NCBI GenBank assembly: GCA_958295515.1
Contig: CATQGW010000001.1
Span: 580,923-644,922, forward strand
DNA: 64,000 nucleotides
Direction of reading: 5' to 3'
Origin: an uncultured Dehalococcoidia bacterium
GTDB lineage: Bacteria; Chloroflexota; Dehalococcoidia; Bin125
Both the position numbers and the translations under genes were made by a program. Below the pieces are notes generated by a model. The model ran no database searches, was not told where the DNA came from, and saw only the letters and a list, made by a program, of their open reading frames with translations. Shown here piece by piece: positions 8,701 to 26,397 of this stretch. How positions within the stretch are numbered: position 1 is the first letter of the stretch; every line of letters begins with the position of its first letter.

Positions 8701-8727
8701 TGCCCGCAGGCTAGCGCGTTCGCGCCC

Positions 8728-10032: not shown

Positions 10033-10124
10033 TGCGGCAGCCTACGGCTTTTCGCTGCCCAACGTTTGCGCGCGATACCCTGCGGGCGGTGGACAGCGCC
10101 GATCACACTCCGAGGAGGGACGCC

Positions 10125-11835: not shown

Positions 11836-13197
11836 ATGATGGACAGCATCACCCTCGAAAATTTCCGCTGCTTCCGCGAACGCCAAACCGCCAGGCTCGC
11901 CCCCCTGACCCTGCTAGTCGGCGAAAACAGCACCGGCAAAACCTCGTTCCTGGCGCTTATCCGAGCACTGGCAGCATTCGCATACACGCAACGCCCCCCC
12001 AACTTCAAGGAGCCGCCGTACGATTTGGGAAGCTTCGACGAAATCGCGCACTATCGCGGCGGCCGAGGTGGACGCGCTGAATCGTTCGAGGCGGCGTTCA
12101 CTGCGCGACAGCTTCGCCGCCGTCGGTCGCAATCGAAAGATTTCTACGAATTCGCCGTCACGTTCGCCGAACGCGGTACCGCGCCTGCTCCGGTCCGCCG
12201 GCGCATAGCTGTAGGCGACGCTTGGGTCGAGGACGCACTGGATGCCGTAAGCGGTTACTCAGTTCGGTTTGGGACCAAAAGAGGCGCATGGGTGGCGACC
12301 GACTCCAATGATCTGCGAACGCCGATCGATCTCGGTGAGCAGATGTACATGTACCTTGCTCTCGATCGGGCGTTGGACCTGGTACCTCTCGACTCACATA
12401 ACCAAGACAGCATCGAGATCAAGCCTGTCGACGGATCGCCAGCGATGAATAGCGACGATCTGACACTACTAGAGCCGATCAGATCATACATTATCCGGTT
12501 GGTTGGTCCCCGACCGTTCGCGAGCGCACCTGTGCGTTCCAAACCGGAACGTACTTATAACCCTGCGCGTCTTGACCGTGACCCTGATGGTGACTATGTG
12601 CCGATGTACCTCGCGGACCTCCGGTGGCAACAGAAAGAAGCATGGGACACGCTGAAGAGCCGCATTGACGAGTTCGGCCGTACAGCTGGCCTCTTCGACG
12701 AACTCTCTATACGCCCGCTGGGAACCAAAGCAAGCGAGCCTTTCCAGGTCCAAGTACGGAAGGGCGACGGAAGCTTGAAAGGCCCTCGTCGCAATCTGCT
12801 GGACGTTGGCTATGGTGTGAGTCAGGTACTGCCTATAGTGACAGAGCTGCTTCGGCCGGACGCCGCAGATCAACACCTGCTCCAACAACCAGAGGTCCAC
12901 CTCCACCCCAGCGCTCAAGCCGCCTTGGGCACGTTGTTCTGCCAAGTCGCCGCCTCCGGTCGGCAACTCATCGTCGAAACGCACAGCGATCACCTGATCG
13001 ACCGCGTGCGGATGGACGTGCGGGACAGAACCACCAGCCTCAAACCCGAAGATGTCTCGCTGCTCTACTTCGAGCGAACCGGCTTGGACGTCTGCATCCA
13101 CTCCCTCCGCTTCGACAAACTGGGCAACGTCCTCAACGCCCCGCCGGGCTATCGCCAGTTCTTCCTCAAAGAGGTCAACAGATCATTGGGCCTCTGA
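11836..13197 (+). CDS. ABC/OLD-type AAA ATPase (AAA_21-like with DUF3696-like C-terminal tail)
   Basis: Walker A GENSTGKTS near the N-terminus. C-terminal ABC-ATPase D-loop/H-loop QLIVETHSDHLIDR. ~60-aa C-terminal extension. Lower GC than flanking genes. Confidence 0.75.
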   Translation: MMDSITLENFRCFRERQTARLAPLTLLVGENSTGKTSFLALIRALAAFAYTQRPPNFKEPPYDLGSFDEIAHYRGGRGGRAESFEAAFTARQLRRRRSQSKDFYEFAVTFAERGTAPAPVRRRIAVGDAWVEDALDAVSGYSVRFGTKRGAWVATDSNDLRTPIDLGEQMYMYLALDRALDLVPLDSHNQDSIEIKPVDGSPAMNSDDLTLLEPIRSYIIRLVGPRPFASAPVRSKPERTYNPARLDRDPDGDYVPMYLADLRWQQKEAWDTLKSRIDEFGRTAGLFDELSIRPLGTKASEPFQVQVRKGDGSLKGPRRNLLDVGYGVSQVLPIVTELLRPDAADQHLLQQPEVHLHPSAQAALGTLFCQVAASGRQLIVETHSDHLIDRVRMDVRDRTTSLKPEDVSLLYFERTGLDVCIHSLRFDKLGNVLNAPPGYRQFFLKEVNRSLGL

Positions 13198-13200
13198 CGA

Positions 13201-13686
13201 ATGTGCGCCATCGTAGACGCCGATAGTTCGGGAGAGATTGCCGCTGTGAACCCGTCAGCTGGCGCTCAAGCGTTCAAAGAGTGGATTGCAGGTGGTCAGT
13301 GTTGCTTGGTCATCGGCGGCAGCCGCCTGCGAAAAGAGCTTGGACGCGGCTTCACCGATCCCGAGCGTGCGAAGCAGACGACCGTCACGGAATGGATTTC
13401 GGGAGTTGCGCTCGCCGGGAAGCTGATCAGCGAAGATGACGCCGAGGTCGACGCCCGCGCTGATCAGATCGAGCAATCGGGATTGTGCGCGTCGAACGAC
13501 TTTCACATCATCGCGCTCGCTCAGGTCGCCGGCGCGCGGATGCTGTATTCCAGAGATGCAGAGTTGCATCAGGACTTCACGAATACCGCGCTTCTGTCCC
13601 AACCTTCCGGCAAGGTGTATCCACGAAACTTGAGCCTGTCGGCGAGCAAGCAGTGGCTCGCCCGCAATCGCAGGTTCTACAGCTGA
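13201..13686 (+). CDS. PIN-like domain protein (putative nuclease partner of the ATPase)
   Basis: 161 aa starting 4 bp after the ATPase stop. N-terminal AIVDADS (β1 with acidic residue). C-terminal SNDFHIIALAQVAGARMLYSRDAELHQDF resembles the PIN/VapC D-x-iaA-A-…-T-D-DF signature. Confidence 0.5.
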   Translation: MCAIVDADSSGEIAAVNPSAGAQAFKEWIAGGQCCLVIGGSRLRKELGRGFTDPERAKQTTVTEWISGVALAGKLISEDDAEVDARADQIEQSGLCASNDFHIIALAQVAGARMLYSRDAELHQDFTNTALLSQPSGKVYPRNLSLSASKQWLARNRRFYS

Positions 13687-15080
13687 CCGTCGCCGCCTAA
13701 CACCTCCGGACGCATCCGGCACCAATCCGTCGACTGCTCATACGCATGCGCCACCCGACACACCGTCGCCTCGTCGAAATGCCGACCACCGATCATCAAC
13801 CCAATCGGCAGACCATTCCGATCAAACCCGCACGGAATCGAAATCGCCGGAATCCCCGTCACATCATACGGAGCCGTCAGACGCGCCAACTCCGCGTCAT
13901 CGTCCCCCTCCTCGATCGTCGGCGCAGTGCGCGATGTCGTCGGCGACACCAACACATCCACCGTTTGCAGCACCTCCACCGTCTCATCGATGAACAGCCG
14001 ACGCAGCCGCTGATCATTGATGTAGTCCACCGCCGTCACCGCCAGCCCCGCCTCCACGCGCGGCAGAATATCGCCGTACTCCTCGCGCCGCTCACGCAGC
14101 CACTTCGCGTGATACGCCGCCGCCTCCGCGATAATCGTCATCCCCCGCCCGCGATCCGTCTGCAGCGGCAGCTCCACCTCCACGATCTCCGCACCCAGCC
14201 GCCGCAAATGATCCAGCGCCTCCTCGCAGTGCGACAGCACATCCTCCTCGCAGTTCTTCCACAGCATCTTGCGCGGAACCCCAACCCGCACGCCCTCAAC
14301 GCCTTCGCCCAGCATCCCCGTCGTATCGTCCACCGCCCGGTCCGCCGAGCCCGGATCGTGCGGATCGTAACCCGCGATCGTGTCCAGAAACAGCGCCGCA
14401 TCCTCCACCGTCCGCGCCAGCGGCCCCACGTGATCCAGCGTCCATGACAGCGGCAGCACCCCCGCCCGCGACACCCGCCCGTACGTTCCCATCAACCCCA
14501 CCACACCGCACAGCGACGCGGGAATCCGAATACTCCCGCCCGTATCGCTGCCAATCGCCCCCAGCGCCGAACCCACCGCCACCGCCGCCCCGCTGCCCCC
14601 GCTCGAACCGCCCGGCGAGCGCTCCGTATCCCACGGATTGCATACTGCCCCATAGTGCGGATTACGGCTCGTCGTGCCGAACGCAAACTCATGCAAGTTC
14701 AGCTTGCCCGGCAGCACCGCGCCCGCCTCTTGCAACTTCGTCCACACCGTCGCATCCCGCTCCGGCACCCGCTCGCGCAGAAATCCCGAACCCCCCGTCG
14801 TCGCGATCCCCGCCGTATCCACCAAGTCCTTCAGCCCAATCGGAATCCCGTGCAGCGGCCCTCGCTCGCGTCCATCGCGCAGCTCCTCATCCAGCCGCGC
14901 CGCCTGCTCCCGCGCCAACTCCGCCGTCACCGTGATGTAGGCGTTGAGCAGCGGCTCCGTCTCCTCCAGACGCTCCAGCACCGACTCCGTCAGCGCCGCG
15001 CAGGTCAGTGCGCCGCCCCGCAGCGCCGCACCCGCCTCCGCAATCGTCAGATCGTGCGGATGCCGTTCAAGCTCAGTCAT
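13677..15080 (-). CDS. amidase (amidase-signature family, GatA-like)
   Basis: GGSSGGSGAAVA amidase signature and a Ser-cisSer-Lys context. Start chosen at MTELERH (cat at 15078-15080). Confidence 0.85.
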   Translation of the reverse strand: MTELERHPHDLTIAEAGAALRGGALTCAALTESVLERLEETEPLLNAYITVTAELAREQAARLDEELRDGRERGPLHGIPIGLKDLVDTAGIATTGGSGFLRERVPERDATVWTKLQEAGAVLPGKLNLHEFAFGTTSRNPHYGAVCNPWDTERSPGGSSGGSGAAVAVGSALGAIGSDTGGSIRIPASLCGVVGLMGTYGRVSRAGVLPLSWTLDHVGPLARTVEDAALFLDTIAGYDPHDPGSADRAVDDTTGMLGEGVEGVRVGVPRKMLWKNCEEDVLSHCEEALDHLRRLGAEIVEVELPLQTDRGRGMTIIAEAAAYHAKWLRERREEYGDILPRVEAGLAVTAVDYINDQRLRRLFIDETVEVLQTVDVLVSPTTSRTAPTIEEGDDDAELARLTAPYDVTGIPAISIPCGFDRNGLPIGLMIGGRHFDEATVCRVAHAYEQSTDWCRMRPEVLGGDGQL

Positions 15081-15324
15081 CTGCGCCCCGCTCTCCGCGC
15101 GCCTCGCCCACATCGAAGCGCAGCCCGAACGCCGGCTCCGTCTCCCCCAAGTCGGGCAGCTCCGGGCGGTTCATCTCACTCCGCAGCGCCGCCGCCACGA
15201 CCGTCGCCGTTCGCTCCAGCTGCGCATATTTCGGCGACACCCCCAGCGCGTCCGCCGCCGCGCGCAGCGCATCCCGCAACGTATCCGTCTGAGCCATTGC
15301 CCCACTCCTCTCGCCGCGCGCCAA
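15073..15324 (-). CDS. small GatC/AtzG-like protein (DUF4089-like), translationally coupled to the amidase
   Basis: ~75-83 aa ORF whose TGA overlaps the amidase ATG (ATGA). Small soluble protein immediately upstream of an AS-family amidase, as for AtzG/GatC partners. Start ambiguous (15324 or 15297). Confidence 0.4.
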   Translation of the reverse strand: MARGERSGAMAQTDTLRDALRAAADALGVSPKYAQLERTATVVAAALRSEMNRPELPDLGETEPAFGLRFDVGEARGERGADD

Positions 15325-15432
15325 TTCTAGAGAGTGCCGAGCAGCCGCACACGCGGGCTATCCTGCCATCAGACAGTTCCACCAGACAGTCCCGGCGGGC
15401 ATGCCCGCCGAGACAGCCCGAAAGGCGAAACC

Positions 15433-16218
15433 ATGGCCGACGAAGTCCTCTTTGACGTCAACGAGCGGGTGGCCACCATCACCCTCAACCGCCCCGACAA
15501 ACTCAACGCCATTGACGCCGCGCTCGGCTCGCAGCTGATCGAGTCGCTCGTCGAAGTCCGCAACAACGACGACATCCGCGCCGCCGTGATCACCGGCGCC
15601 GGCCGCGCCTTCTGCGCTGGCGCCGACCTCACCCAGGGCGACGGCCCCGCCGCCTCCGCCGGACCCGCCGGACACTTCGAAACCTCGCAGCGCATCCGCT
15701 TCGACGAGTTCGACGCCAAAAAGCCCCTGATCGCCGCGATCAACGGACACGCCCTCGGCGGCGGCTTCGAAATCGCCCTGATCTGCGACCTGCGGATCGG
15801 CGCCGACAACGCCCGCGCGCGCCTCGGCCTGCCCGAAATCACCCTCGGCTTCTTCCCCCTCGCCGGCGGCCCCATGCGCCTCCCCCGCGCCATCCCCCAG
15901 GCCTACGCCAACGAAATGCTCTTCCTCGGACGCCGCCTCGACATGCAGACCGCCCTCCAGTGGGGCCTAATCTCCCGCCTCGTCCCGCCCGACGAGCTGC
16001 TCCCCACCGCCCAGGAAATGGCCGCCCAAATCGCCGGCTACGCCCCCATCGCCGTCCGCGCGCTCAAAGAACTCACCTACGCCCAGACCGACATGACGCT
16101 CGACCAGGCCAACCGCTTCGGCGCCTCCCTGCGCTGGATCGTCGGCCAAACCGCCGACTCCAAAGAAGGCCCCCGCGCCTTCGCCGAAGGTCGCCAACCC
16201 GAATTCAAAGGCGAGTAG
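15433..16218 (+). CDS. enoyl-CoA hydratase/isomerase (crotonase family)
   Basis: MADEVLFDVNERVATITLNRPDKLNA… with oxyanion-hole GAGRAFCAGADL. ATG at 15433. Confidence 0.85.
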   Translation: MADEVLFDVNERVATITLNRPDKLNAIDAALGSQLIESLVEVRNNDDIRAAVITGAGRAFCAGADLTQGDGPAASAGPAGHFETSQRIRFDEFDAKKPLIAAINGHALGGGFEIALICDLRIGADNARARLGLPEITLGFFPLAGGPMRLPRAIPQAYANEMLFLGRRLDMQTALQWGLISRLVPPDELLPTAQEMAAQIAGYAPIAVRALKELTYAQTDMTLDQANRFGASLRWIVGQTADSKEGPRAFAEGRQPEFKGE

Positions 16219-16222
16219 CGCA

Positions 16223-17413
16223 GTGCCCGCCGGCCTCCCCCTCAACGGCCTCTTCGTCCTCGACCTCACCCGCGCACGCGCCGGGCCCACCGCTACCCGC
16301 CAACTCGGCGACTGGGGCGCCGACGTGCTCAAAGTCGAAGCGCCCGCACCGCCCGGCTCCCCCGAAGGCGTCACCGGCGGACGCGAGTCCAGCGACTTCC
16401 TCAACCTGCACCGCAACAAACGCTCCCTCTCGCTCAACCTCAAAGAACCCGAAGCGCGCGACATCTTCCTCCGCCTCGCCGCCGACGCCGATGTCATCGT
16501 CGAAAACTACCGCCCCGACGTCAAATATCGGCTCGGCGTCGATTACGAAACCGTACGCGCAATCAACCCCCGCATCATCTACGGCAGCATCTCCGGCTTC
16601 GGGCAGGACGGACCATACGCAAAGCGCCCCGGCGTCGACCAGATCGCCCAGGGCTTGGGCGGCATCATGTCCGTCAACGGACTGCCCGGCGACGGCCCCG
16701 TGCGCGTCGGCATCCCCATCGCCGACCTCACCGCCGGCGGCTTCCTCGCCCAGGCCATCCTGCTCGCGCTCTACGAACGCGAACAGTCCGGCGAAGGCCA
16801 GTGGGTATACACCTCCCTGCTCGAAGCGCAGCTCGCCATGCTCGATCTACAGGCCACCCGCTGGCTGATCGACGGCGAAACACCCCCCCAGGCCGGCAAC
16901 GACCACCCCACCCTGATGCCCACCGGCGTCTACCAAACCGCCGACGGACACATCAACATCGCCGCCTCCGGCGGAGACATCTACGCCCGCCTCTGCCGCG
17001 CGCTCGACGCCCCCGAACTGATCGACCACCCCGACTACGCAACCTCCGCCCTGCGCTCCCGCAACCGCGCCGCGCTCAACGAAGAAATCGCCCGCCGCAC
17101 CCGCCGACGCTCCAGCGCCGAATGGATCGCCGCCCTCAACGACGCCGGCGTGCCCTGCGGACCGATCTACGACATCCCCGCCGCCTTCGCCGACCAACAG
17201 GTGCAACACCTCGCCATCGACCGCCCCGTCGCGCACCGCGAGCGCGGCGAAATCCGCGTCGTCGGCCAGCCCATCCACCTCCGGCGCACCCCGCAGCCCG
17301 AGCGCATGCGCCTGCCCACCCCACAACTCGGAGAACATACCGACGAAGTGCTCGCACAACTCGGTTACGACAACGACGCCATCGCCGACCTGCGCAAGCG
17401 CGGCGTAATCTGA
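16223..17413 (+). CDS. CoA transferase, family III (CaiB/BaiF)
   Basis: LNGLFVLDLTRARAGP…LGDWGADVLKVE N-terminal signature, ~396 aa. Confidence 0.85.
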   Translation: MPAGLPLNGLFVLDLTRARAGPTATRQLGDWGADVLKVEAPAPPGSPEGVTGGRESSDFLNLHRNKRSLSLNLKEPEARDIFLRLAADADVIVENYRPDVKYRLGVDYETVRAINPRIIYGSISGFGQDGPYAKRPGVDQIAQGLGGIMSVNGLPGDGPVRVGIPIADLTAGGFLAQAILLALYEREQSGEGQWVYTSLLEAQLAMLDLQATRWLIDGETPPQAGNDHPTLMPTGVYQTADGHINIAASGGDIYARLCRALDAPELIDHPDYATSALRSRNRAALNEEIARRTRRRSSAEWIAALNDAGVPCGPIYDIPAAFADQQVQHLAIDRPVAHRERGEIRVVGQPIHLRRTPQPERMRLPTPQLGEHTDEVLAQLGYDNDAIADLRKRGVI

Positions 17414-17423
17414 GGAGCATCGA

Positions 17424-18227
17424 ATGAACACCATCGAACTCGAAACCGAAAAAATGCTCGCCTGGAGCGAAGACGGCATCGGCTGGATGGTCTTCAACAA
17501 CCCCGAACGCCTCAACGCCATGGGCGTCGAAATGAACGCCGCCATCCCCACCATCCTGCACACCTTCCGCGACGACCCCGATGTGCGCGTCGTCGTCATG
17601 AAAGGCGCCGGCGAACGCGCCTTCGTCTCCGGCGCCGACATCTCCGAATTCGAATCGCGCCGCTCCGACCCTGAAACCATCAAACAGTACGACGAAATCG
17701 GCGCCGCCGCCGGTCGCGCCTACGGCGAACTCGACAAACCCCTGATCGCCATGATCCGCGGCTACTGCATGGGCGGCGGACTGCTCACCGCACTCCGCGC
17801 CGACCTCCGCATCGCCTCCGACAACTCCCAATTCGGCGTCCCCGCCGCACGCCTCGGCCTCGGCTACGGCTACGGCGGCGTCAAAACCCTCACCGACCTC
17901 GTCGGGCGCGCCGCCGCCCAGGAAATACTCATCACCGGCAAGCGCTTCCCCGCCGCCGACGCCATGCGCTGGGGCCTCGTCAACCGCGTCACCACCGTCG
18001 AAAACCTCGAAGCCGCCGTGCTCGAGCTCGCCGCCACCATCGCCGCCAACGCCCCCCTCACCATCCGCGCCATCCGCTACGCCATCGACCAGCTCGCCAA
18101 AGACCCCAATTCCCGCAACCTCCCCCACCTAGAAACTCTGGTCAACGCCTGCTTCAACAGCCAGGACTACAAAGAAGGCCGCACCGCCTTCATGCAAAAA
18201 CGCCCCCCCAACTTCACCGGCCGCTAG
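17424..18227 (+). CDS. enoyl-CoA hydratase/isomerase (crotonase family)
   Basis: …MVFNNPERLNAM… and GAGERAFVSGADI, 267 aa. Confidence 0.85.
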   Translation: MNTIELETEKMLAWSEDGIGWMVFNNPERLNAMGVEMNAAIPTILHTFRDDPDVRVVVMKGAGERAFVSGADISEFESRRSDPETIKQYDEIGAAAGRAYGELDKPLIAMIRGYCMGGGLLTALRADLRIASDNSQFGVPAARLGLGYGYGGVKTLTDLVGRAAAQEILITGKRFPAADAMRWGLVNRVTTVENLEAAVLELAATIAANAPLTIRAIRYAIDQLAKDPNSRNLPHLETLVNACFNSQDYKEGRTAFMQKRPPNFTGR

Positions 18228-18238
18228 AGGACGATCTG

Positions 18239-20236
18239 ATGACTCACCCTCCGCAATGGCGATTCCGTAAAATGTCACCCGCCGAGATCAACCAGGATCC
18301 GGTGCAGGGAGAGTTCTTCACCTCCACGTCTGATCTCGCTGAGCGCCTTGTCCGAGAGTCGATACAAAACTCGCTCGACGCTGCTCTCGGCGATGGTCCG
18401 GTCCGAGTTCGGTTCGCCTTCAGCGGTGCGGAACAGGCTTTGCCCGCTGAGCAAGCCGCACGCTACCTCGATGGCTTGAAGGCGCATCTCGAGGCAGTCG
18501 CGTTGTCGGATGCCGACAAGCCGTCAGTAGATGTCGATCACGAAGACGCTGCGGTTTATGACGCCTACGACTTGGTCGACCAACGGGTGCCAATGACCTA
18601 TTTGGTCGTCGAAGACTTGGGAACAAAGGGACTGACCGGCGACATCAGGAGCAACACCGAGTTCGAGAAAGGAAACCGCTTTTGGGGGTTCTTCCGCAGT
18701 GTCGGCATCTCACCCAACGTCGGCGGGACAGGCGGCTCGTGGGGCCTCGGCAAGTGGGTCTTCCCCGATGTCTCGCAGATCAATGCCTATCTCGGCATCA
18801 CCCGCCGTTCGGATGAGCAACGTGACCTGCTCATGGGCATGGCGATCCTCAAGACGCACCAAATCGACAACAAGAAGTACCCTCCCTACGGTCAGTTCGC
18901 GATTCGCTCTGATGAACAGGACGCCCGCTGGCTTCCATTGCCGATCGACTCCGACGAGGATCCTGACAACATCCTCGACACTGCGATCGACGATTTCCGC
19001 CTCCAGCGGCGCGACAGCTCTGGACTCTCAGTGGTCATCCCTTGGCCAAAAGAAGAACTGAACGCCAACGCGACCGTTCGCGCTGTATTGACGCAGTACT
19101 TCCTGCCGATTGTGTACGGCGATCTTGAAGTCGAGGTCGTCGCCGACGGCGAGACACAGCGAGTTAATCGTGAGTCAATCGTCGATGCGGCGCTCTGTAT
19201 CGACATATCGGAGCGCGACGACGAGTCTGCTCAGTCTTTGGTCAAAGCGATCGACCTTGCGTGCTGGGCAAGAGGTGAGGACGAGGAATCGCTGATTGAC
19301 GTCAAAGCCACGACGAGCCGCGACATTCTGGCAGGACAGGACATCGAATCACTGAGAGAACGCTTCGATCGCGGCGACCGTCTCGGTTTTCGCTTGTCGA
19401 CGAACGTGACTGACCGGAAGACAGGCGAGCCCGTAGTCAACACTTTCCGCGTCTATGTCGAGCAGGACGAGGATTTGACCCACGGCCACGACTATTTCGT
19501 GCGCGGCTACCTCCGCATACCTCACATGGATCACATCGGCTCGTTCCGCGCGCGAGCACTCGTGCTGGTTGATCGAGAGTCGAAGCTGGGCGATCTGCTG
19601 CGGGATGCCGAAGGTCCGGCTCACGTCTCGTGGGATCCTCACGCCGAGCGTCTCAAGAAGCGTTGGATCGGTGGATACGAACGTGTCCAGCAAGTTCGTC
19701 GCGCTGCTCTGCTGTTGCTCGGACCGCTCGCCGAAGTGCCGCGTGAGCGCCTCAAAAACCTACTCGCCGACCTCTTTCCCGCACCGTTGGGCGGAGGCGG
19801 CAATGGCCCACACCCGCCACCACCGCCGCCACCACCGCCACCACCGCCACCTGTAGTCAATCCCATCTCCATCAGTGAACTGAAGGATGGGTTTCGTATA
19901 CGCTCTGATTCGTCGAACCCTGCATCGCAGGCACTCGCTGGCACGAGTTGGCGTGTCGCGTTCGCGTACGATGTAGCGCGCGGCGGGCAGCGTGCCGCTT
20001 TCAACAGCTTTCGACAGGGCGTGAAGCAGGGCTCGCCCGACTTCAGCCTTTTCCGAGGCGCGCTCAGTATCACGTGTGAGGGATGCCTATACAAGATCAG
20101 GTCGGAGAACGAAATTGAGATCACAGTCACGAGGAACGACTTCCATCTCGGCGTACGCGGTCTTGATGCACGGGACGTGATCGTTGACCTACACCAACGA
20201 TCCGACGACGACGACACAGAGGATGATGAAGAATGA
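18239..20236 (+). CDS. GHKL (Bergerat-fold, HATPase_c/MORC-like) ATPase with C-terminal domain and poly-proline linker
   Basis: N-box ESIQNSLDAA, G1 box VEDLGTKGLTGD, G2-like GGTGGSWGLGKW. 665 aa. 13-Pro run. Acidic C-terminus. Lower GC than neighbours. First gene of a 3-gene overlapping operon. Confidence 0.7.
   Translation: MTHPPQWRFRKMSPAEINQDPVQGEFFTSTSDLAERLVRESIQNSLDAALGDGPVRVRFAFSGAEQALPAEQAARYLDGLKAHLEAVALSDADKPSVDVDHEDAAVYDAYDLVDQRVPMTYLVVEDLGTKGLTGDIRSNTEFEKGNRFWGFFRSVGISPNVGGTGGSWGLGKWVFPDVSQINAYLGITRRSDEQRDLLMGMAILKTHQIDNKKYPPYGQFAIRSDEQDARWLPLPIDSDEDPDNILDTAIDDFRLQRRDSSGLSVVIPWPKEELNANATVRAVLTQYFLPIVYGDLEVEVVADGETQRVNRESIVDAALCIDISERDDESAQSLVKAIDLACWARGEDEESLIDVKATTSRDILAGQDIESLRERFDRGDRLGFRLSTNVTDRKTGEPVVNTFRVYVEQDEDLTHGHDYFVRGYLRIPHMDHIGSFRARALVLVDRESKLGDLLRDAEGPAHVSWDPHAERLKKRWIGGYERVQQVRRAALLLLGPLAEVPRERLKNLLADLFPAPLGGGGNGPHPPPPPPPPPPPPPVVNPISISELKDGFRIRSDSSNPASQALAGTSWRVAFAYDVARGGQRAAFNSFRQGVKQGSPDFSLFRGALSITCEGCLYKIRSENEIEITVTRNDFHLGVRGLDARDVIVDLHQRSDDDDTEDDEE
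19814..19852 (+). repeat. CCR trinucleotide (poly-proline-encoding) tract inside GHKL ATPase gene
   Basis: 13 consecutive Pro codons (ccg/cca alternating, final cct), encoding HPPPPPPPPPPPPP between the two halves of the GHKL protein. Confidence 0.8.
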
Positions 20237-21033
20237 TCCGTCGATTTAACCGCACGGGCCGTAGGACGATTGCGCGTCAGCATGCTCAGGTCACACTGCG
20301 CAAACTGAACCCCGAGCAGACTTACTTTGAAATCGCGCTTGATTTGAATTCCTATGGTTTTCCGAAGGACGCGAAGGTTCGCGTCGAAGCTTGGCGTTCG
20401 AATGCCGTACAGCGCTGGGAATTCGGGATCGTTGACGACATCAACCCGCCGACGCGAGGCAATCGCGTCCTGCGCGACGTGCCTGAGACCGCCGCATTCC
20501 GCGTTGCCATTGTGGCGCCAGACGATTCGGGTTTGCTGTTCGGCTTGAGTGGCGACCTTCGTCCACGGCGAGAACTGACCAACGACGGCTCAGAGCCGAT
20601 AGCCGAATCGCTGCTTCACGTCGAGATCGCTAGCGATCTCGGGCAAGAGGTGTGGCGTCTCGATTTCGGAGACGACGAGCTGCCGGTGCTCCAGCTCAAT
20701 GGCTCAATCTCGGGCATCGCGCAGATTGTGGAGCACGACCCGACGTTTCGGTCCCTCGTCATTCCGGAGATTTTCAGAAGCATCTTGCAGCGAGCAATTC
20801 TCGTTACCCGGATCGACCCAGATGATCCTGACTCGAACGCTTGGACCGACTGGCTTGCTTTGGCTAAGAAGCAAGCCCCAAAGGCAGATGTGCCCACACT
20901 GACAGATTTGGCGGACACCGGCGAGCGAGACGCGGCCTTTTCATGGATCGAGATGGTGGTTGGCCGATTCGCGGCTCAAAGGGGCTTTGATGCTGCCACG
21001 ACGTACAGTAAGGCTATGGAGGCAGGGCGATGA
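20233..21033 (+). CDS. hypothetical protein (operon partner 2 of GHKL ATPase)
   Basis: 266-aa ORF. ATG overlaps the upstream stop (ATGA). No motif recognised by eye. Confidence 0.6.
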   Translation: MIRRFNRTGRRTIARQHAQVTLRKLNPEQTYFEIALDLNSYGFPKDAKVRVEAWRSNAVQRWEFGIVDDINPPTRGNRVLRDVPETAAFRVAIVAPDDSGLLFGLSGDLRPRRELTNDGSEPIAESLLHVEIASDLGQEVWRLDFGDDELPVLQLNGSISGIAQIVEHDPTFRSLVIPEIFRSILQRAILVTRIDPDDPDSNAWTDWLALAKKQAPKADVPTLTDLADTGERDAAFSWIEMVVGRFAAQRGFDAATTYSKAMEAGR

Positions 21034-21746
21034 CATACGCCAGAGCACTTACGACAGACGGCATTCGACGAGCTCAGGAGTTCGTCAGGGCGTTGGGCAG
21101 TGACCCGGCCATGCCGCTCACCCCGCCGGATGACATTCTGTTCGATGCTCGATACTCGCGGGAGATCGAGCGAGCACCGAGAGTCGAACATCGCAGTTTC
21201 ACCACACGACGCGAAGCTGCCGAATACTTGGTTTCTCTTTCGCCCCCTCTCGATCAGCGCTCCGTAGATGACTGGCCATTTTGGTCGTGGTTGGGCCTGT
21301 GGCACCTGCCGGACATATTGCACACCGATGAGCGGCGCACTCGCATGTCGAGCGAAGAAGAGACGTTCGTTGTCGACCGAATGGACGGCCGGTCGCGACA
21401 AAGCAGGTACCGGAACTACCTGTGGACATCGTGGCGTCTTTACCAAGCGTTCGGCGAAGAGGCAGCATATCTCCTCGATCTCGACATCATGGAGATCGGA
21501 CAAATCACGCGACGAATCATTAACTCGCCGCGAATCTTCAACTCCGTTGGTGTCGTTCAACTAATTCTACGGCTCTATACGCGGGAGAAAAGGGCGAAGC
21601 GCGGCCGCAGAAACCGCCCTGGTGGGCTGGATCACCTCTTTCGCGTCCTCCCACAGCTCGAACTGACGCACGATGTCTATGGCATGTCGCCCGACGCGCT
21701 GCTGCGCATCTTGCCACCAGAGATCCAAAAGTGGGATGAGCGCTGA
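21030..21746 (+). CDS. hypothetical protein (operon partner 3 of GHKL ATPase)
   Basis: 238-aa ORF. ATG overlaps the upstream stop (ATGA). Basic C-terminal region (REKRAKRGRRNRPGG). Confidence 0.6.
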   Translation: MTYARALTTDGIRRAQEFVRALGSDPAMPLTPPDDILFDARYSREIERAPRVEHRSFTTRREAAEYLVSLSPPLDQRSVDDWPFWSWLGLWHLPDILHTDERRTRMSSEEETFVVDRMDGRSRQSRYRNYLWTSWRLYQAFGEEAAYLLDLDIMEIGQITRRIINSPRIFNSVGVVQLILRLYTREKRAKRGRRNRPGGLDHLFRVLPQLELTHDVYGMSPDALLRILPPEIQKWDER

Positions 21747-21798
21747 CCCGCAGTCGCCTGAGACTGGCTACCATACCCACACACACAAGGAGGCACCC

Positions 21799-22905
21799 AT
21801 GCCCGTCGAATTCATCGGCATGATCGGCGTCAAGCCGTCCGAAGACAACGCCGCCGTCCACATCATCGGTGGCGGCATCTCCCGCGACTACCTCTGCGAC
21901 TTCACCCGCGCCCACGAGCAGGCCGGCTTCGACCAGGTGCTCGTCGGCTATACCTCCGCCGCCGCCGACGGCCTGCACGTCGCTCAGGCCGCCGCCGCCT
22001 GCACCGAGCGCATCAAATTCCTCATCGCCCACCGCCCCGGCTTCGTCCAGCCCACCCTCGCCGCACGCAAATTCGCCACCCTCGACTACTTCACCGGCGG
22101 GCGCGTCTCCGTCCACGTCATCTCCGGCGGACACGACACCGAGCAGCGCCGCGACGGCGACTGGGCCGACCACGACGCCCGCTACCGCCGCACCGACGAA
22201 TACCTCACCGTCATGCGCCGCACCCTCGCCGGCGGCGAACCATTCGACTTCCACGGCGAGTTCTACAACGTCGAAGGCGCCAACGCCGACGTCTGGCCCG
22301 TCCAGCACGGCGGCATCCCCATCTACTTCGGCGGCGCCTCCGACATCGCCTTCGAAACCGGCGTCAAGCACTGCGACGTCTACATGATGTGGGGCGAGCC
22401 CCGCGCCTCCATCGCCCGCACCATCGAGCGCGTCCGCGAAATGGCCGCCCGCCACAACCGCAGCCCCCGCCTCAGCGTCTCCTTCCGCCCCATCCTCGCC
22501 GCCACCGAAGAAGCCGCCTGGGAAAAAGCCGAGCGCTACCTCGCCAAAGTCAGCACCCTGTCCAAGCAGCCGCTCGACTTCCGCCCCCAGTCGCGCGGCT
22601 CCCAGCGCCTGCTCGAATGGGCCGCGCAGGGCGACATCCACGACGAGCGGCTCTGGATGCCCATCGCCGCCGCCACCGGCGCCGCAGGCAACACCTCCGC
22701 CCTCGTCGGCACCCCCGACCAGGTCGCCGAAGCCCTGCTCGCCTACTACGACCTCGGCGTCAGCACCATCCTCATCCGCGGCTTCGAGCCCCTGCCCGAC
22801 GCCGCCGACTACGGACGCGAACTCATCCCCACCGTCAAAGCCGAAGTCGCCAAACGCGACGCCGCCGCCGAGCAGCCCGCCCGCCAGACCGCGGCAGCCC
22901 GATGA
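21799..22905 (+). CDS. LLM-class flavin-dependent oxidoreductase (luciferase-like monooxygenase)
   Basis: ATG at 21799 after AAGGAGG. TIM-barrel LLM signatures: …DQVLVGYTSAAADG…, …FLIAHRPGF…, YFGGAS. GC-rich native codon usage. Confidence 0.8.
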   Translation: MPVEFIGMIGVKPSEDNAAVHIIGGGISRDYLCDFTRAHEQAGFDQVLVGYTSAAADGLHVAQAAAACTERIKFLIAHRPGFVQPTLAARKFATLDYFTGGRVSVHVISGGHDTEQRRDGDWADHDARYRRTDEYLTVMRRTLAGGEPFDFHGEFYNVEGANADVWPVQHGGIPIYFGGASDIAFETGVKHCDVYMMWGEPRASIARTIERVREMAARHNRSPRLSVSFRPILAATEEAAWEKAERYLAKVSTLSKQPLDFRPQSRGSQRLLEWAAQGDIHDERLWMPIAAATGAAGNTSALVGTPDQVAEALLAYYDLGVSTILIRGFEPLPDAADYGRELIPTVKAEVAKRDAAAEQPARQTAAAR

Positions 22906-24050
22906 GCGCCGCCGCCGACGCCGAGCGCCGCATCCGCGCCTTCGAGGAGATGGGCTGGCATCGCACCGGCTGGGAAGCCGACAACCAGGCAGCCGACTGG
23001 CTAATCGCCGAGCTCCAGACCGCCGGCATCGAAGCCCGCGCGCAACCCTTCCGCGCCCCCCGCTGGCACTGGAACAAGGCGGAAGTGCGGGTCGCGGGTC
23101 ACAGGATCATCGGTGAACCCATGAGCGACGGAGGTCCCGCGCCTGGAATGGGCGTAGTGGCCCCGCTTCTCCGCGAACCTCGCCACAACACCATGTCCAT
23201 CATCGTGTGGCAGCCCACGATCGACGATCCGCGTCGTCTCGGTCCTGAAATCTATGACCACCTTGACCATCTGGAGGCGCAGGGTGCGCAAGGCGTAGTG
23301 CTTTTGATGGACGACGAGGACGGATACGGCATCCTGCGCAACGCCGAACGGCCGTGGGATCCCATTCGCCTGCCGGTGCTCCAAATCGCACCGAAAGAGG
23401 CAGGCCCGCTCCTGGACAATGAGGGGGAAACCGCCGGGCTTGTGATCACAGGCCGCCGCGAAGAAGTCCAGGCGCTCAACGTCCTCGCCGAAATCCCCGG
23501 CGCCGACCTCAACGCCGCGCCCGTCACCCTCATGACGCCCAAATCCGGCTGGTTCACCTGCGCCGCCGAGCGCGGCGGCGGCATCGCCGTCTGGCTCGCC
23601 GTCGCCGAACGGATCGCCGCCCAGCGCCCCCGCCGCACTCTCCAACTCGTCGCCAGCAGCGGCCACGAACTGCACCACCTCGGCCTCGATGCCTACCTCG
23701 AATCGCTCGGCGACGCCGCCTCCAAAGTCTCCGCCTGGATCCACCTCGGCGCCGCAATCGGCGCAAAACGCGGCACCCCCAGCCTCGCCGCCTCCGACGA
23801 CGAACTGATGACCATTGCCCAATCCGCCCTCTCCGCCTCCGGCATCGAGCGCGACCCATTCCCCGTCGGACGCTCCGGCTACGGCGAAGCCCGCAACATC
23901 GCCGAAATCGGCGGCCGCTACATCTCCCTACTAGGCGGCCACCCCTACTTCCACAGCCCCCAGGACACCTTCGACAACGCCGTAGACCTCAACCTACTCA
24001 CCCGCCACATCAACGCCGTAGAAACAATGACGCGAGAACTGCTGGCCTGA
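22902..24050 (+). CDS. hypothetical protein, possible M28-like peptidase/hydrolase
   Basis: ATG overlaps the LLM stop (ATGA). Weak resemblance to the M28 metal-binding region (…AERGGGIAVWLAVAERIA…SSGHELHHLG). Function uncertain. Confidence 0.45.
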   Translation: MSAAADAERRIRAFEEMGWHRTGWEADNQAADWLIAELQTAGIEARAQPFRAPRWHWNKAEVRVAGHRIIGEPMSDGGPAPGMGVVAPLLREPRHNTMSIIVWQPTIDDPRRLGPEIYDHLDHLEAQGAQGVVLLMDDEDGYGILRNAERPWDPIRLPVLQIAPKEAGPLLDNEGETAGLVITGRREEVQALNVLAEIPGADLNAAPVTLMTPKSGWFTCAAERGGGIAVWLAVAERIAAQRPRRTLQLVASSGHELHHLGLDAYLESLGDAASKVSAWIHLGAAIGAKRGTPSLAASDDELMTIAQSALSASGIERDPFPVGRSGYGEARNIAEIGGRYISLLGGHPYFHSPQDTFDNAVDLNLLTRHINAVETMTRELLA

Positions 24051-24111: not shown

Positions 24112-26397
24112 GTGAAGAACGCGCCAAAGCCCGAAAATCTGTCGCTGCAGAGCCTGCTCTCGCGCCTCAGCGAGGGACGCTTCGTGATCCCCGACTTCCA
24201 GCGGGAATTCGAGTGGGAGCCCAAAGACATCCTCGAGCTGATGCGCTCCCTCTTCCTCGATTACTACATCGGAAGCTTGCTCCTCTGGCGCGGGCGCAAC
24301 GAGACGTTCGCGGCGCTGGCGTGTAAGCCGCTCGCGGTCTTCGCCGGCGACAACGGAGGCAGTCCGGAGCACATCGTGCTTGACGGGCAGCAGCGCCTCT
24401 CGGCGATGTACTACGCATTCATGGCGCCGTCGGTCCCCGCACCAAACCGGAAGGTCCGGTACTTGTACTTCATCCGCATCGATAAATGGGCGGACGACGA
24501 ACCTGACGAGGCTTTCGTCTACGACTGGACGCGCCGTGGCACAAACCTACTCGACGATCGCGAAGAGCAATTTGCCCGTCAGATGCTCCCACTCGCAACG
24601 ATCGGCAATGCCGGTCGGCGTGGGGTTTGGGACTGGTTCCGCGATTACGAGACATTCTGGGAGGAGAAGCGTGGCGCTGCCGATTCGACAGGTCGCACAG
24701 CAGAGCGCGGTCAAGCTCAGCGGTGCATCGAGCAAGGTAGCGAGTTTGCCGATCACCTTGATGAGATGCTGCGCGAATACCAAATCTCCTACATTGAGCT
24801 TGATCAAGAGCTCGAGATCGATAAGGTCTGCGACACCTTCACACGGATCAACAGCCGCGGCATCCGACTCGACATATTCGACCTGATGAACGCTCTCCTG
24901 CGACCGAAAGACCTCCGACTCAAGGACATGTGGCGAGAGGTTGCGCCTGATCTGGAGTTCATCAGCTCAAGTCGGTCCGATGTCTACGTACTGCAGGTGA
25001 TGTCGATCCTCGCGCAGAACTACTGCTCACCGAAGTACCTGTACCATCTCCTCCCCGGCGAGAAGCGCCGCATTCGCAAGCCGGATGGATCCAGCGCCGA
25101 TCAAGTGCTGGTGCCCGATGCCGAAGACTTTGAGCGCCGTTGGTTGGAAGCCGTGGCGATCATCAAGAGCGGCGTCGCGCGGCTGAGCCATCCTCAAGAC
25201 TTCGGAGCGATCTCCTCAGCCCTCCTCCCGTACGCCTCGATCCTCCCAGCGTTTTGCTCGGTGCTGCACATCGCAAATTCTGCGCCCGACGCTGAGCGAC
25301 TCACGGCTGCACGCAAGGTTCGCGATTGGTACTGGGCGAGCGTGTTCACGAATCGATACTCCGGGGCGGTTGAGTCCACGGCGGCGCGCGATGTCCTTGA
25401 CGTAAGGCAATGGATCAACAACGACGATGCCGTACCAGATGTGATCGCTGCACTTCCCGAACGCATGCGGACACTGGACCTACGAAGCGAAACGCGCCCT
25501 GCGGCATCGGTGTATAAAGGAGTGCTCAACCTGATCATTATGAACGGCGCCCGCGATTGGGCGTCCGACGCGCCACCGCAGCCGGACGACATCGATTCCT
25601 ATCACATCATTCCCAAGTCGTGGGGAAGAGCGAATCGTCTCGGCAAACGGATCGACACCGTTCTGAACCGCGTTCCCCTGTCCTCGGAAACCAATCGGGA
25701 CATCATCGGCAAGCAGCTCCCAAATCAGTACCTACGCGAGTGGATCGACAGAACAGGAGAAGCGTCCGTCCGCGAGACGCTGCGAACTCATCTGATCTCG
25801 GACACGGCATTCGACATTCTGTGCCGCGACCCGTTCGAGAAAGACGACTTCGAAGCATTTCTGTCGGAACGTCAACGAACCATCCAACAGGCGATTGAAG
25901 TGCTGTTGATCAAGGGGCGGCTCGATCTGACTCCGGACCTGAGGGAAATGGATAGGCGCGTTGAGGTCGTTGAGCTCGAACTGCGAAAGCTTGTTGTGGC
26001 TACTCTCAACAGCGACTCACAAAGAGTGCCTCAGAGCGTGCGCGTGAAATGGCAGCCGCGAATCGAAACGATCAAGCGCAAGCAGCCAGGACTCGCAGCC
26101 GACGCATTCGACACCCTGCGAGTGCAGCTGGAGTACGCCGACCTGAGCGAGCTTGGCGAGATCATTCTCAACAAGGCGCTGTGGCTAGACTTCCAACCGG
26201 TGTTCAACGCGAAGCCGCTCGTGCAGAGCCGCTTCGCACAGCTCGGCGAGCTGCGCAATGCGATCCGCCACACCCGCACCGTGACGCCCGTCGTCCAAAA
26301 AGACGGCGAAGCGGCACTGCTGTGGTTCGACCAGGCGCTGGGCATGGCGGGGCTTCGGAGGTCGGACGGAGAGATTCCCGCTCGGGGGCGGGAATGA
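24112..26397 (+). CDS. DUF262 (ParB-like NTPase) + DUF1524 (HNH-like) protein, GmrSD/SspE-like type IV restriction-type enzyme
   Basis: N-terminal IPDFQREFEWE and DGQQRLSAMY (DUF262 hallmark). C-terminal …DDIDSYHIIPKSW… (His-Me/DUF1524-like). 761 aa. Reduced GC. GTG start. Confidence 0.8.
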   Translation: MKNAPKPENLSLQSLLSRLSEGRFVIPDFQREFEWEPKDILELMRSLFLDYYIGSLLLWRGRNETFAALACKPLAVFAGDNGGSPEHIVLDGQQRLSAMYYAFMAPSVPAPNRKVRYLYFIRIDKWADDEPDEAFVYDWTRRGTNLLDDREEQFARQMLPLATIGNAGRRGVWDWFRDYETFWEEKRGAADSTGRTAERGQAQRCIEQGSEFADHLDEMLREYQISYIELDQELEIDKVCDTFTRINSRGIRLDIFDLMNALLRPKDLRLKDMWREVAPDLEFISSSRSDVYVLQVMSILAQNYCSPKYLYHLLPGEKRRIRKPDGSSADQVLVPDAEDFERRWLEAVAIIKSGVARLSHPQDFGAISSALLPYASILPAFCSVLHIANSAPDAERLTAARKVRDWYWASVFTNRYSGAVESTAARDVLDVRQWINNDDAVPDVIAALPERMRTLDLRSETRPAASVYKGVLNLIIMNGARDWASDAPPQPDDIDSYHIIPKSWGRANRLGKRIDTVLNRVPLSSETNRDIIGKQLPNQYLREWIDRTGEASVRETLRTHLISDTAFDILCRDPFEKDDFEAFLSERQRTIQQAIEVLLIKGRLDLTPDLREMDRRVEVVELELRKLVVATLNSDSQRVPQSVRVKWQPRIETIKRKQPGLAADAFDTLRVQLEYADLSELGEIILNKALWLDFQPVFNAKPLVQSRFAQLGELRNAIRHTRTVTPVVQKDGEAALLWFDQALGMAGLRRSDGEIPARGRE

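Follow-up and report, generated by a model that had tools for sequence, protein, structure and literature searches.

A three-gene operon headed by a GHKL ATPase in an uncultured Dehalococcoidia bacterium: a probable divergent subtype of the candidate defence system PDC-M33

The three-gene operon described here lies in a 64,000-nucleotide stretch of DNA from an uncultured Dehalococcoidia bacterium (the window) and, as judged from profile comparisons and gene order, is probably a divergent subtype of PDC-M33, a candidate anti-phage system catalogued by PADLOC. The first-pass annotation had taken its architecture to be undescribed; the homology of its first protein, the DUF6339 annotation of its third and the order of its genes instead match PDC-M33. 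With moderate confidence, we regard the trio as a horizontally mobile operon of the PDC-M33 type whose role is most probably defence against phages or other invading DNA.

Operon layout and kinship with PDC-M33

The three open reading frames lie on the + strand and encode component A (gene 1, 18239–20236, 665 aa), component B (gene 2, 20233–21033, 266 aa) and component C (gene 3, 21030–21746, 238 aa). Reading of the frames agrees with the earlier description of a coupled trio, with ATGA start/stop overlaps at both the A/B and B/C junctions. As also first described, gene 1 starts 11 bp past the stop of an enoyl-CoA hydratase (crotonase) gene on the same strand (TAG at 18225–18227); a Shine-Dalgarno-like GAGGA, read from the sequence (18227–18231, + strand), overlaps that stop and sits 7 nt 5′ of the gene 1 ATG, and no sigma-70-like promoter was found within 15000–23000 of the window. 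A CoA-transferase gene, the hydratase gene and a luciferase-like monooxygenase gene flank the trio. The true start of the monooxygenase gene is at 21799. The reported deficit in GC of about 10% relative to flanking genes holds, at 0.588 for the trio vs 0.67–0.72 in the immediately flanking genes, and the trio lies 7–10 points below its flanks overall (0.656 over the 6-kb flanks, a figure that takes in other low-GC islets). The trio genes are not chance reading frames, since gene 1 has >500 full-length homologues and the B family comprises 2007 clusters at 50% identity in a library of 1.84 billion proteins. Two defence-type islets had also been proposed nearby, and the ORF at 11836–13194 indeed matches ABC ATPases of the NsnB / HEC-03 / PDC-M55A type (E 1e-46) and the ORF at 24112–26394 is GmrSD-like (PDC-M55C 1e-26, HEC-05 4e-22), while domain searches gave no confirmation of the PIN assignment of a neighbouring 161-aa ORF.

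PDC-M33 is one of PADLOC's phage-defence candidates, which were defined by their embedding in BREX, DISARM or type I RM systems (Payne et al., bioRxiv 10.1101/2024.01.29.577857); our literature search found no paper naming PDC-M33 or DUF6339. Its gene order, with A, B and C co-directional and contiguous, is that of the trio. Gene 1 is matched by the PADLOC PDC-M33A model over residues 31–300 (E 7.4e-14), as are 47/47 family members (best 9.5e-22). The PDC-M33B and PDC-M33C models do not match window genes 2 and 3, so that the PADLOC check envisaged earlier succeeds for the first gene only, and because of this miss we place the trio in a divergent subtype. In hhalign, A aligns with an Arthrobacter member across residues 21–470 (99%, E 3e-18), and its homology to PDC-M33A spans ~450 residues. 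An Arthrobacter plasmid trio matches all three models (PDC-M33A 3.5e-82, B 6.4e-30, C 1e-31), with a C that is DUF6339 at 3.9e-34. Window B and C align in hhalign with those of a Rhizobium trio (B 96%, E 3.5e-9; C 98.6%, E 1e-15), and profile-profile comparison of the window clade with the canonical families gives colinear matches both for B (E 0.044, 86 columns; score 20.9 vs 13.1 ± 2.2 in 100 column shuffles, none equal) and for C (E 0.039, 167 columns, exceeding all 100 shuffles); B and C profiles compared with single Arthrobacter sequences found nothing.

The window trio and canonical PDC-M33 share three co-directional overlapping genes (~630–670, 260–295 and 240–275 aa), an A that is homologous across the ATPase, transducer and ExxxH middle domain, a C annotated as DUF6339, and a defence-type context. 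In contrast, window A is only ~19–23% identical to canonical A in a multiple alignment, carries a ~45-residue insertion in its middle domain and has a short polyproline linker where canonical A has a long low-complexity one. The ~75-aa conserved gene upstream of canonical loci, present in 5/6 loci compared for an upstream small ORF (the sixth, from Ligilactobacillus, has an unrelated one), is missing at the window. The window clade sits on chromosomes, mostly as stand-alone trios, in uncultured hosts, whereas canonical trios reside on Gram-positive plasmids.

Component A, a GHKL ATPase with an ExxxH domain

Component A has the Bergerat fold and intact ATP-binding motifs of a GHKL ATPase (N-box ExxxN, G1 DxGxG and G2 GxxGxG), and a ribosomal S5 domain-2-like transducer follows the ATPase directly, as in proteins of the MORC / MutL / GyrB type and not of the kinase type. 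All motifs quoted in the first-pass annotation are present, as are its 13-proline linker and acidic tail (features of gene 1 are on the + strand throughout). The N-box ESIQNSLD (residues 40–47, 18356–18379), part of ESIQNSLDAA at residues 40–49, holds the predicted catalytic Glu40 and the predicted Mg-binding Asn44, and no variation occurs at E40, Q43, N44 or D47 among 47 family members or in distant plasmid homologues. In the G1 box DLGTKGLTG (residues 126–134, 18614–18640), part of DLGTKGLTGD at residues 126–135, D126, T129, G131 and L132 are superfamily-invariant, as are G165, G166, G169 and G171 of the G2 box and ATP lid GGSWGLGKW (residues 165–173, 18731–18757), which belongs to the motif GGTGGSWGLGKW at residues 162–173. 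The lid loop 155–166 has low pLDDT in the predicted structure, as expected for a mobile lid.

The best-conserved part of A is the middle segment 413–512, with a pairwise column identity of 0.69 vs 0.62 for the ATPase. The ExxxH motif LLRDAEGPAHVSW (residues 454–465, 19598–19633) holds the E458/H462 pair; the same L454, E458 and H462 recur without exception in the window clade and in plasmid homologues of Firmicutes and Actinobacteria, and E458-G-P-A-H462 is invariant across the A superfamily in the multiple alignment. A run of exactly 13 prolines (residues 526–538, 19814–19852) then serves as a flexible linker, residues 517–527 having pLDDT <50 in the predicted structure, and a Pro-rich or low-complexity linker occupies the same position throughout the family. 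The variable C-terminal beta-sandwich domain (residues 541–655, 19859–20203) and the acidic tail DDDDTEDDEE complete the protein.

A Bergerat-fold ATPase would also be found in a sensor histidine kinase or in a paralogue of MutL or HtpG, identities that are exceedingly unlikely for gene 1. The Pfam matches foreseen for it (PF13589/PF02518) did not appear, with no HATPase_c or HATPase_c_3 match even at E ≤1. A histidine kinase was rejected on the lack of any HisKA or HATPase_c match, weak structural similarity and the lack of a regulator in the operon, and a MutL or HtpG paralogue on the lack of a Pfam, NCBIfam or PDB sequence match together with structure matches, Hsp90-family structures included, that cover only the N-terminal module. 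The MORC family sensu stricto was likewise rejected, as A has no HATPase_c_3 match at E ≤1, is 11–13% identical in sequence to eukaryotic MORC3/MORC2 and SMCHD1, lacks a CW, coiled-coil or SMC-hinge domain, and has unrelated middle and C-terminal domains.

GHKL ATPases have been proposed to control immune effectors in two validated defence proteins, the GHKL-Shedu protein VcSduA, of which variants were designed to knock out either ATP hydrolysis or the nuclease (PMC12137116), and SLFN-pAgo-GHKL (bioRxiv 10.64898/2026.05.29.728809). In both, the ATPase is joined in one polypeptide to its effector (a PD-(D/E)xK nuclease, or SLFN/Ago), whereas the trio has two separate partner proteins and no recognisable effector domain. 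The PADLOC Shedu models do not match gene 1, and the only defence proteins with a GHKL or MORC ATPase that our literature search brought up were GHKL-effector fusions.

Co-inheritance, mobility and genomic context

A, B and C are strictly co-inherited. Their order is kept in ~76/78 assessable loci, the exceptions being contig ends or truncated copies, and B follows gene 1 in essentially all loci, which answers the question raised in the first-pass annotation of whether the three genes co-occur. Moving as one block, the trio has reached at least seven phyla, its identity ranks cut across phyla, and its GC is below that of the flanks in 53/68 loci (in the extreme case, 0.417 vs 0.71). Most hosts are uncultured Chloroflexota, Gemmatimonadota and Acidobacteriota, and several of their record names point to sponge symbionts.

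Canonical trios are frequent on conjugative and mobilisable plasmids and have defence genes as neighbours: dcm, vsr, a type II REase and Shedu in Arthrobacter, AIPR in Enterococcus, AbiG and an AlwI REase in Lactococcus, and R-M genes in Planococcus, Priestia, Paenarthrobacter and Deinococcus. The Ligilactobacillus trio is bordered by genes for an S subunit and an N-6 methylase at one end and by those for a methyltransferase, a helicase and a GIY-YIG nuclease at the other. The validated systems of a lactococcal plasmidome study all differ from the trio. In the window clade, immediate neighbours are mostly housekeeping genes and in a minority defence genes.

The canonical neighbourhoods bear on a quite improbable alternative, in which the trio, inactive alone, is an accessory motor of R-M systems. 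Its GHKL and S5 domains would loop or remodel DNA on behalf of a nuclease whose gene lies elsewhere. This idea draws on the paraMORC proposal of Iyer, Abhiman and Aravind 2008 (PMC2292703), where paraMORC2, with the signature 'ExxxH', is described in Gram-positives beside DCM, Vsr and RE-fold genes. Compared by description only, A resembles paraMORC2 in its GHKL and S5/transducer module with a strongly conserved ExxxH C-terminal to it, and canonical relatives of the trio occur in Gram-positives beside DCM, Vsr and restriction endonuclease genes; PMC2292703 does not mention partner genes like B and C. The embedding by which PDC candidates were defined and the lack of a visible effector in the trio itself point the same way. 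However, in the window and at the majority of the clade's 53 non-syntenic loci, housekeeping genes surround a lone trio and R-M genes are not adjacent. The travel of the three genes as a unit across phyla also argues against a motor that depends on a partner system.

Plasmid carriage could alternatively reflect a selfish maintenance or addiction module, or a system directed against plasmids or other mobile elements and not against phages, which we consider unlikely. The patchy, horizontally transferred and low-GC character of the trio is consistent with such a role, and searches of phage records and IMG/VR contigs found no relatives. Yet the trio contains no toxin/antitoxin-like pair of small proteins, the window clade lies on chromosomes and lacks a consistently neighbouring recombinase or transposase, and the methyltransferase cassette in a relative's slot is more typical of defence hotspots.

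That slot was defined by comparison with the syntenic region in relatives, as the first-pass annotation had envisaged. The trio occupies the same position in 17 Dehalococcoidia loci, where flank proteins (hydratase, CoA-transferase and amidase only) are 71–92% identical vs 42–54% for A and the trio variants. Two further flank queries, 'orf553' and 'x302', are probably not genes, and a third, for the monooxygenase, lay one base out of frame; their matches mark homologous DNA only. In one relative (L093), whose hydratase is 81% identical, the slot is filled by a different cassette, made up of a DNA methyltransferase-HNH gene and one gene of no assigned kind. With diverged trios or a methyltransferase cassette between well-conserved flanks, the slot is therefore variable and probably a defence-type hotspot.

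The same comparison largely refutes a housekeeping or metabolic role, for example as an Hsp90-like chaperone module for the flanking CoA-transferase, hydratase and monooxygenase genes. The tight same-strand junction with the hydratase gene, where no promoter-like site was detected, the shared position in 17 related genomes, the acidity and acidic tail of A and the Hsp90-family structures among its matches would suit such a module. It is nonetheless very unlikely, given that the trio turns up in unrelated contexts at ~60 other loci, that another cassette can take its slot beside a closely similar hydratase, and that the trio is set off from its flanks both by protein divergence and by its deficit in GC.

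Components B and C and a proposed mechanism

Component C is predicted to be all-alpha and, by precomputed annotation, is a DUF6339-family protein: PF19866.5 is assigned to a protein identical to gene 3 and to its relatives, and the entry for one relative (P0168) is unmarked, corresponding to an E of 1e-5 or less. The local PF19866.4 model did not match gene 3, and a search of the predicted fold against PDB and viral structures found nothing. The gene for C is duplicated in 17/77 loci, with paralogues 36–79% identical, and the family has variable N-terminal extensions. C would therefore be a diversifying module, likeliest a recognition or specificity subunit, or possibly an effector of new fold. 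Component B carries an N-terminal RxxNxTGR motif but has no recognisable domain; sequence searches gave no Pfam, NCBIfam, PADLOC or PDB match, no Asp, Glu, His or Lys is invariant across 53 sequences, and comparison with A revealed no homology. B is probably an adaptor. All three predicted proteins are soluble, and A and B are strongly acidic (A has a net charge of -32), a composition that does not suggest avid DNA binding. Sequence searches of Pfam, NCBIfam and PDB yielded nothing usable for any of A, B and C, and neither these nor structure searches revealed an effector of the nuclease, NADase, protease, TIR or membrane kind.

Defence remains the reading we prefer, and we infer that ATP drives a clamp onto foreign DNA or a phage protein, with a division of labour among the subunits. 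ATP binding would bring two copies of A, a MORC/MutL-like GHKL ATPase, together at the N-terminal strap and ATP lid, and A would thereby act as a nucleotide-driven clamp or switch. Its ExxxH middle domain may be a catalytic site or a site for docking partners, and its variable beta-sandwich would sit on the flexible proline tether, while B would serve as adaptor and C for recognition or specificity, or possibly as the effector. A bolder extension, which we put forward only tentatively, is that the trio confers self-sufficient immunity with no classical enzymatic effector. The A clamp, targeted by C via B, would entrap or compact invading DNA and block its replication or expression, as a prokaryotic counterpart to, and perhaps a forerunner of, MORC/SMCHD1 silencing; the window clade would then be a new subtype with cross-phylum spread in marine, apparently sponge-associated, uncultured bacteria.

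Current PADLOC models miss the window clade, which is therefore under-counted when defence systems are inventoried in Chloroflexota, Gemmatimonadota and Acidobacteriota MAGs. In practical terms, the gain is better HMMs for B and C together with a clearly delimited candidate system, and the fixed slot with alternative cassettes offers a natural series of presence/absence and allelic replacement for the study of hotspot dynamics in uncultured symbionts. If the trio does act in defence, the immune module would be widespread, B alone forming ~2,000 clusters at 50% identity, yet have no effector that can be recognised. One of its subunits (DUF6339) lacks a solved structural relative, and its ATPase is of the family through which eukaryotes silence transposons and chromatin (MORC, SMCHD1).

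Layout and kinship of the operon

The three genes of the trio lie on the + strand of the window at 18239-20236 (gene 1, component A, 665 aa), 20233-21033 (gene 2, component B, 266 aa) and 21030-21746 (gene 3, component C, 238 aa). Reading of the sequence bears out the arrangement described in the first-pass annotation, with three co-directional ORFs, ATGA overlaps at both junctions, and a gap of 11 bp between the stop codon of the enoyl-CoA hydratase gene and the start of gene 1, ahead of which a GAGGA is read at 18227-18231. Also found are the motifs quoted for gene 1, its acidic tail and a proline run of exactly 13 residues (526-538). On the downstream side, the mechanical ORF of the luciferase-like monooxygenase (21673-22905) opens at 21673; its homologues begin with MPVEF, which corresponds to the ATG at 21799 and leaves a spacer of 52 bp behind gene 3; a ribosome-binding site, AAGGAG, is at 21787-21792. 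The trio is also lower in GC than its neighbours, as had been claimed (0.588, versus 0.656 for the 6-kb flanks and 0.67-0.72 for the genes next to it), and GC skew, about -0.25 in the flanks, rises to about 0 within it. Across window 8000-32000, the high-GC backbone has a + strand skew of -0.15 to -0.35 although its genes are mostly on the + strand, and each of the three low-GC islets has a skew of about 0. The near-zero skew of these islets thus provides a second compositional marker for foreign origin.

PADLOC returns a sole match for the trio, component A of the phage-defence candidate PDC-M33 (PDC-M33A). The window protein scores E 7.4e-14, and the match extends to 47 of 47 relatives; genes 2 and 3 are without a PADLOC match. 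The description of the system as undescribed was therefore wrong, since PDC-M33, listed from 2023-24 as an untested candidate, has the same architecture. Their source preprint (bioRxiv 10.1101/2024.01.29.577857) presents the 145 PDC systems as untested candidates, picked out for their embedding within BREX, DISARM and type I R-M loci ('guilt by embedding'). No mention of PDC-M33 or DUF6339 was found in the literature searched.

A tblastn search against plasmids reveals distant trios of the same architecture in Arthrobacter, Paenarthrobacter, Enterococcus, Lactococcus, Ligilactobacillus, Planococcus, Priestia, Deinococcus and Rhizobium, as well as a partial match to A alone on an archaeal Halorussus plasmid. 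A plasmid addiction or anti-plasmid module is a possible reading of the trio, and one that overlaps with defence. The Arthrobacter trio matches the PDC-M33 models in textbook fashion (A 3.5e-82, B 6.4e-30, C 1e-31), and its C is a DUF6339 protein (3.9e-34). The profile of the window A aligns with Arthrobacter A over residues 21-470, ExxxH motif included (hhalign 99%, E 3e-18). Profile-profile comparison of the window's clade, the relatives in uncultured Chloroflexota, Gemmatimonadota and Acidobacteriota, with the canonical Gram-positive plasmid members gives weak, colinear matches for B (E 0.044; 20.9 versus 13.1 +/- 2.2) and for C (E 0.039; 22.5 versus 13.8 +/- 2.2), each above all 100 column-shuffled controls. 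Taken together, the homology of A and the profile results for B and C indicate that the window operon is a divergent subtype of PDC-M33, and not one that PADLOC itself would call. The Rhizobium trio groups with the window's clade on profile comparison of its B (hhalign 96%, E 3.5e-9) and C (98.6%, E 1e-15).

The ATPase family paraMORC2 of Iyer, Abhiman and Aravind (2008) comprises GHKL+S5 proteins with a conserved ExxxH, reported mainly from Gram-positive bacteria and cyanobacteria, whose genes adjoin DCM, Vsr and restriction genes (PMC2292703). This description fits both component A and the contexts of the canonical trios, and going by it the trio ATPase is probably a paraMORC2.

A conserved small gene of ~62-77 aa lies directly upstream of A in the canonical loci of Arthrobacter, Paenarthrobacter, Deinococcus, Planococcus and Priestia (L085 5708-5935; L088 4870-5058; L089 4864-5094; L090 3877-4110; L091 3837-4067). 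Its copies are 38-60% identical and have the common motif LIGNLANRNNYDY; only A, B and C models appeared in PADLOC, with none seen for this gene. The gene, possibly a fourth component or a regulator, is not present in the window, the window's clade, or the Rhizobium, Enterococcus and Lactococcus loci.

Conserved and variable parts of the three proteins

Gene 1 has more than 500 full-length homologues (650-690 aa), with no Pfam domain on record for any of them. Component A was modelled with AlphaFold2 from 47 input sequences (mean pLDDT 86.8). The ATP-site residues E40, Q43, N44, D47, D126, T129, G131, L132, G165, G166, G169 and G171 are invariant in the A family and its distant plasmid homologues. 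Conservation is highest in segment 413-512, which contains LLRDAEGPAHxxW (column identity 0.69 versus 0.62 in the ATPase), and L454, E458 and H462 are invariant superfamily-wide; the variable parts are the beta-sandwich (column identity 0.42), the linker and the tail. That the ExxxH domain is conserved throughout the superfamily to the same degree as the ATP site is new here. A sensor kinase or a MutL or HtpG paralogue was also considered for A, and is contradicted by fold comparison and by the missing accessory domains.

The gene 2 family forms 2007 clusters at 50% identity (E <= 1e-3) in a library of 1.84 billion proteins, and searches of Pfam, NCBIfam, PADLOC and PDB give no match for B. 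Among 53 diverse B sequences the conserved polar residues are N6, T8 and R10 of an N-terminal RxxNxTGR motif together with R61, N156 and R182, with no invariant Asp, Glu, His or Lys, from which we infer a non-catalytic adaptor. Precomputed annotation assigns PF19866.5 (DUF6339) to the gene 3 product (P0121) and to several relatives; hmmscan with the older PF19866.4 gives no match to gene 3 even at E <= 1, and the family model was evidently broadened between versions.4 and.5. C is the variable member of the trio, being present in two or three copies in 17 of 77 loci (36-79% identical to one another), with N-terminal extensions of 100-300 aa in many copies. A paralogue sits upstream of A at L014 9216-9914 and at L037 3164-3847, and in the closest syntenic relative (L001 11568-12275) a '222-aa hypothetical' behind gene 3 is a second DUF6339 copy, 42% identical to the first. 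That DUF6339 lacks any solved structural relative and is often duplicated is also new here. The three proteins are all soluble, C being mildly basic and the other two acidic (A has a net charge of -32).

Neighbourhoods and transfer

A scan of one genome per species yielded 79 loci. As to whether genes 2 and 3 co-occur with gene 1, homologues of both follow it wherever this can be assessed, and the order A-B-C is kept in every assessable locus, the exceptions being contig ends (L045, L074) and truncated copies (L024, L079). Canonical trios adjoin defence genes. In Arthrobacter these are dcm/vsr/type II REase and Shedu; in Enterococcus, AIPR; in Lactococcus, AbiG together with an AlwI REase; and in Planococcus, Priestia, Paenarthrobacter and Deinococcus, R-M genes. 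The Ligilactobacillus trio has an S subunit and an N-6 methylase to one side, and to the other a methyltransferase, a helicase and a GIY-YIG nuclease. In contrast, the immediate neighbours at 53 non-syntenic loci of the window's clade are mostly housekeeping genes, with type I R-M, Gabija, Hhe, PDC-S11, PDC-S37, Schlafen-like genes or a DRT at a minority. An R-M accessory motor devoid of autonomous activity would fit the canonical contexts but disagrees with these stand-alone loci.

The most telling context evidence in the window's clade is a fixed slot: in 17 Dehalococcoidia loci one and the same pair of genes, for the hydratase and the luciferase-like monooxygenase, encloses the trio. The flanks are well conserved (hydratase 71-85%, CoA-transferase 76-89%, amidase 73-92% identity), whereas A is only 42-54% identical, and in a metagenomic relative (L093, JGI contig Ga0209544_1000059, hydratase 81% identical) the slot holds a different cassette at 7929-10881. 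This cassette encodes a 485-aa N4/N6 DNA methyltransferase that has an HNH motif at its C-terminus and, in convergent orientation, a 440-aa protein, for which no PDB relative was found and which is possibly a new restriction or effector partner. All this makes the slot a variable hotspot, and a chromosomal hotspot with allelic cassette replacement is new here. A role of the trio in the flanking CoA-ester pathway is contradicted by this replacement, by the roughly 60 unrelated contexts of the trio, and by its composition and divergence.

Two defence-type islets had been reported nearby, and both hold up apart from a PIN assignment. The low-GC islet at 11836-13686 (~0.59) encodes a 453-aa ABC ATPase (11836-13194) matching PADLOC NsnB (1e-46), PDC-M55A, HEC-03 and AriA, and behind it a 161-aa ORF whose PIN identity finds no support in PADLOC or PDB searches. 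The pair occupies the same place in related genomes (ATPase 52-73%, small ORF 33-76%, flanks 77-92% identical). The other low-GC islet encodes a 761-aa GmrSD-like, DUF262-type protein (24112-26397; PDC-M55C 1e-26, HEC-05 4e-22), likely a type IV restriction enzyme, and the matching position in a relative (L083) is taken by a GmrSD_N protein.

Hosts are almost all uncultured, mainly Dehalococcoidia, other Chloroflexota, Tepidiformaceae, Longimicrobiales / Ca. Palauibacter, Thermoanaerobaculia and other Acidobacteriota, with a few Gammaproteobacteria, Acidimicrobiales and Thermodesulfobacteriota. Some Palauibacterales are sponge-derived, and Ca. Palauibacter irciniicola and Ca. Hopanoidivorans cymbastelae are, from their record names, presumably sponge symbionts. 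Acidobacteriota and Gemmatimonadota copies of gene 1 are 43-48% identical to that of the window and many Dehalococcoidia copies only 33-37%, a ranking at odds with taxonomy that implies cross-phylum transfer. In 53 of 68 loci the trio has a GC below that of its surroundings (median -3 points). At L058 10001-13436 (Acidimicrobiales MAG CATQHS010000001.1) it falls 29 points, to 0.417 versus ~0.71 around it, which indicates a very recent transfer from a low-GC donor.

Proposed function

The trio has an intact ATPase module of the MORC/MutL type, its three proteins are obligatorily linked, and it is mobile, occupies a hotspot and has defence genes as neighbours. The candidate defence-type reading of the first-pass annotation is a reasonable one, and defence against phages or other mobile elements is the probable role; any specific mechanism is tentative at best. 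GHKL mechanics are established for GyrB, MutL, Hsp90 and MORC. By analogy with these, ATP binding would close the lid and dimerise the N-terminal domains of A, the conserved strap of residues 1-30 included, such that A would act as a nucleotide-gated clamp or switch. The ExxxH domain could be a catalytic centre of a new kind or a docking site for B or C, and the variable beta-sandwich on its flexible tether and the duplicated, extension-bearing C are plausible recognition elements. Since no classical effector is visible, there are two possible outcomes: an unmatched domain (B, C or the ExxxH domain) may be an unrecognised effector, or the complex may entrap or remodel invading DNA or a phage protein, driven by ATP. 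That A and B are acidic speaks against simple bulk binding of DNA. Also new here is a divergent subtype of the family, missed by the current B and C models, that is abundant in uncultured marine bacteria of several phyla, apparently ones associated with sponges.
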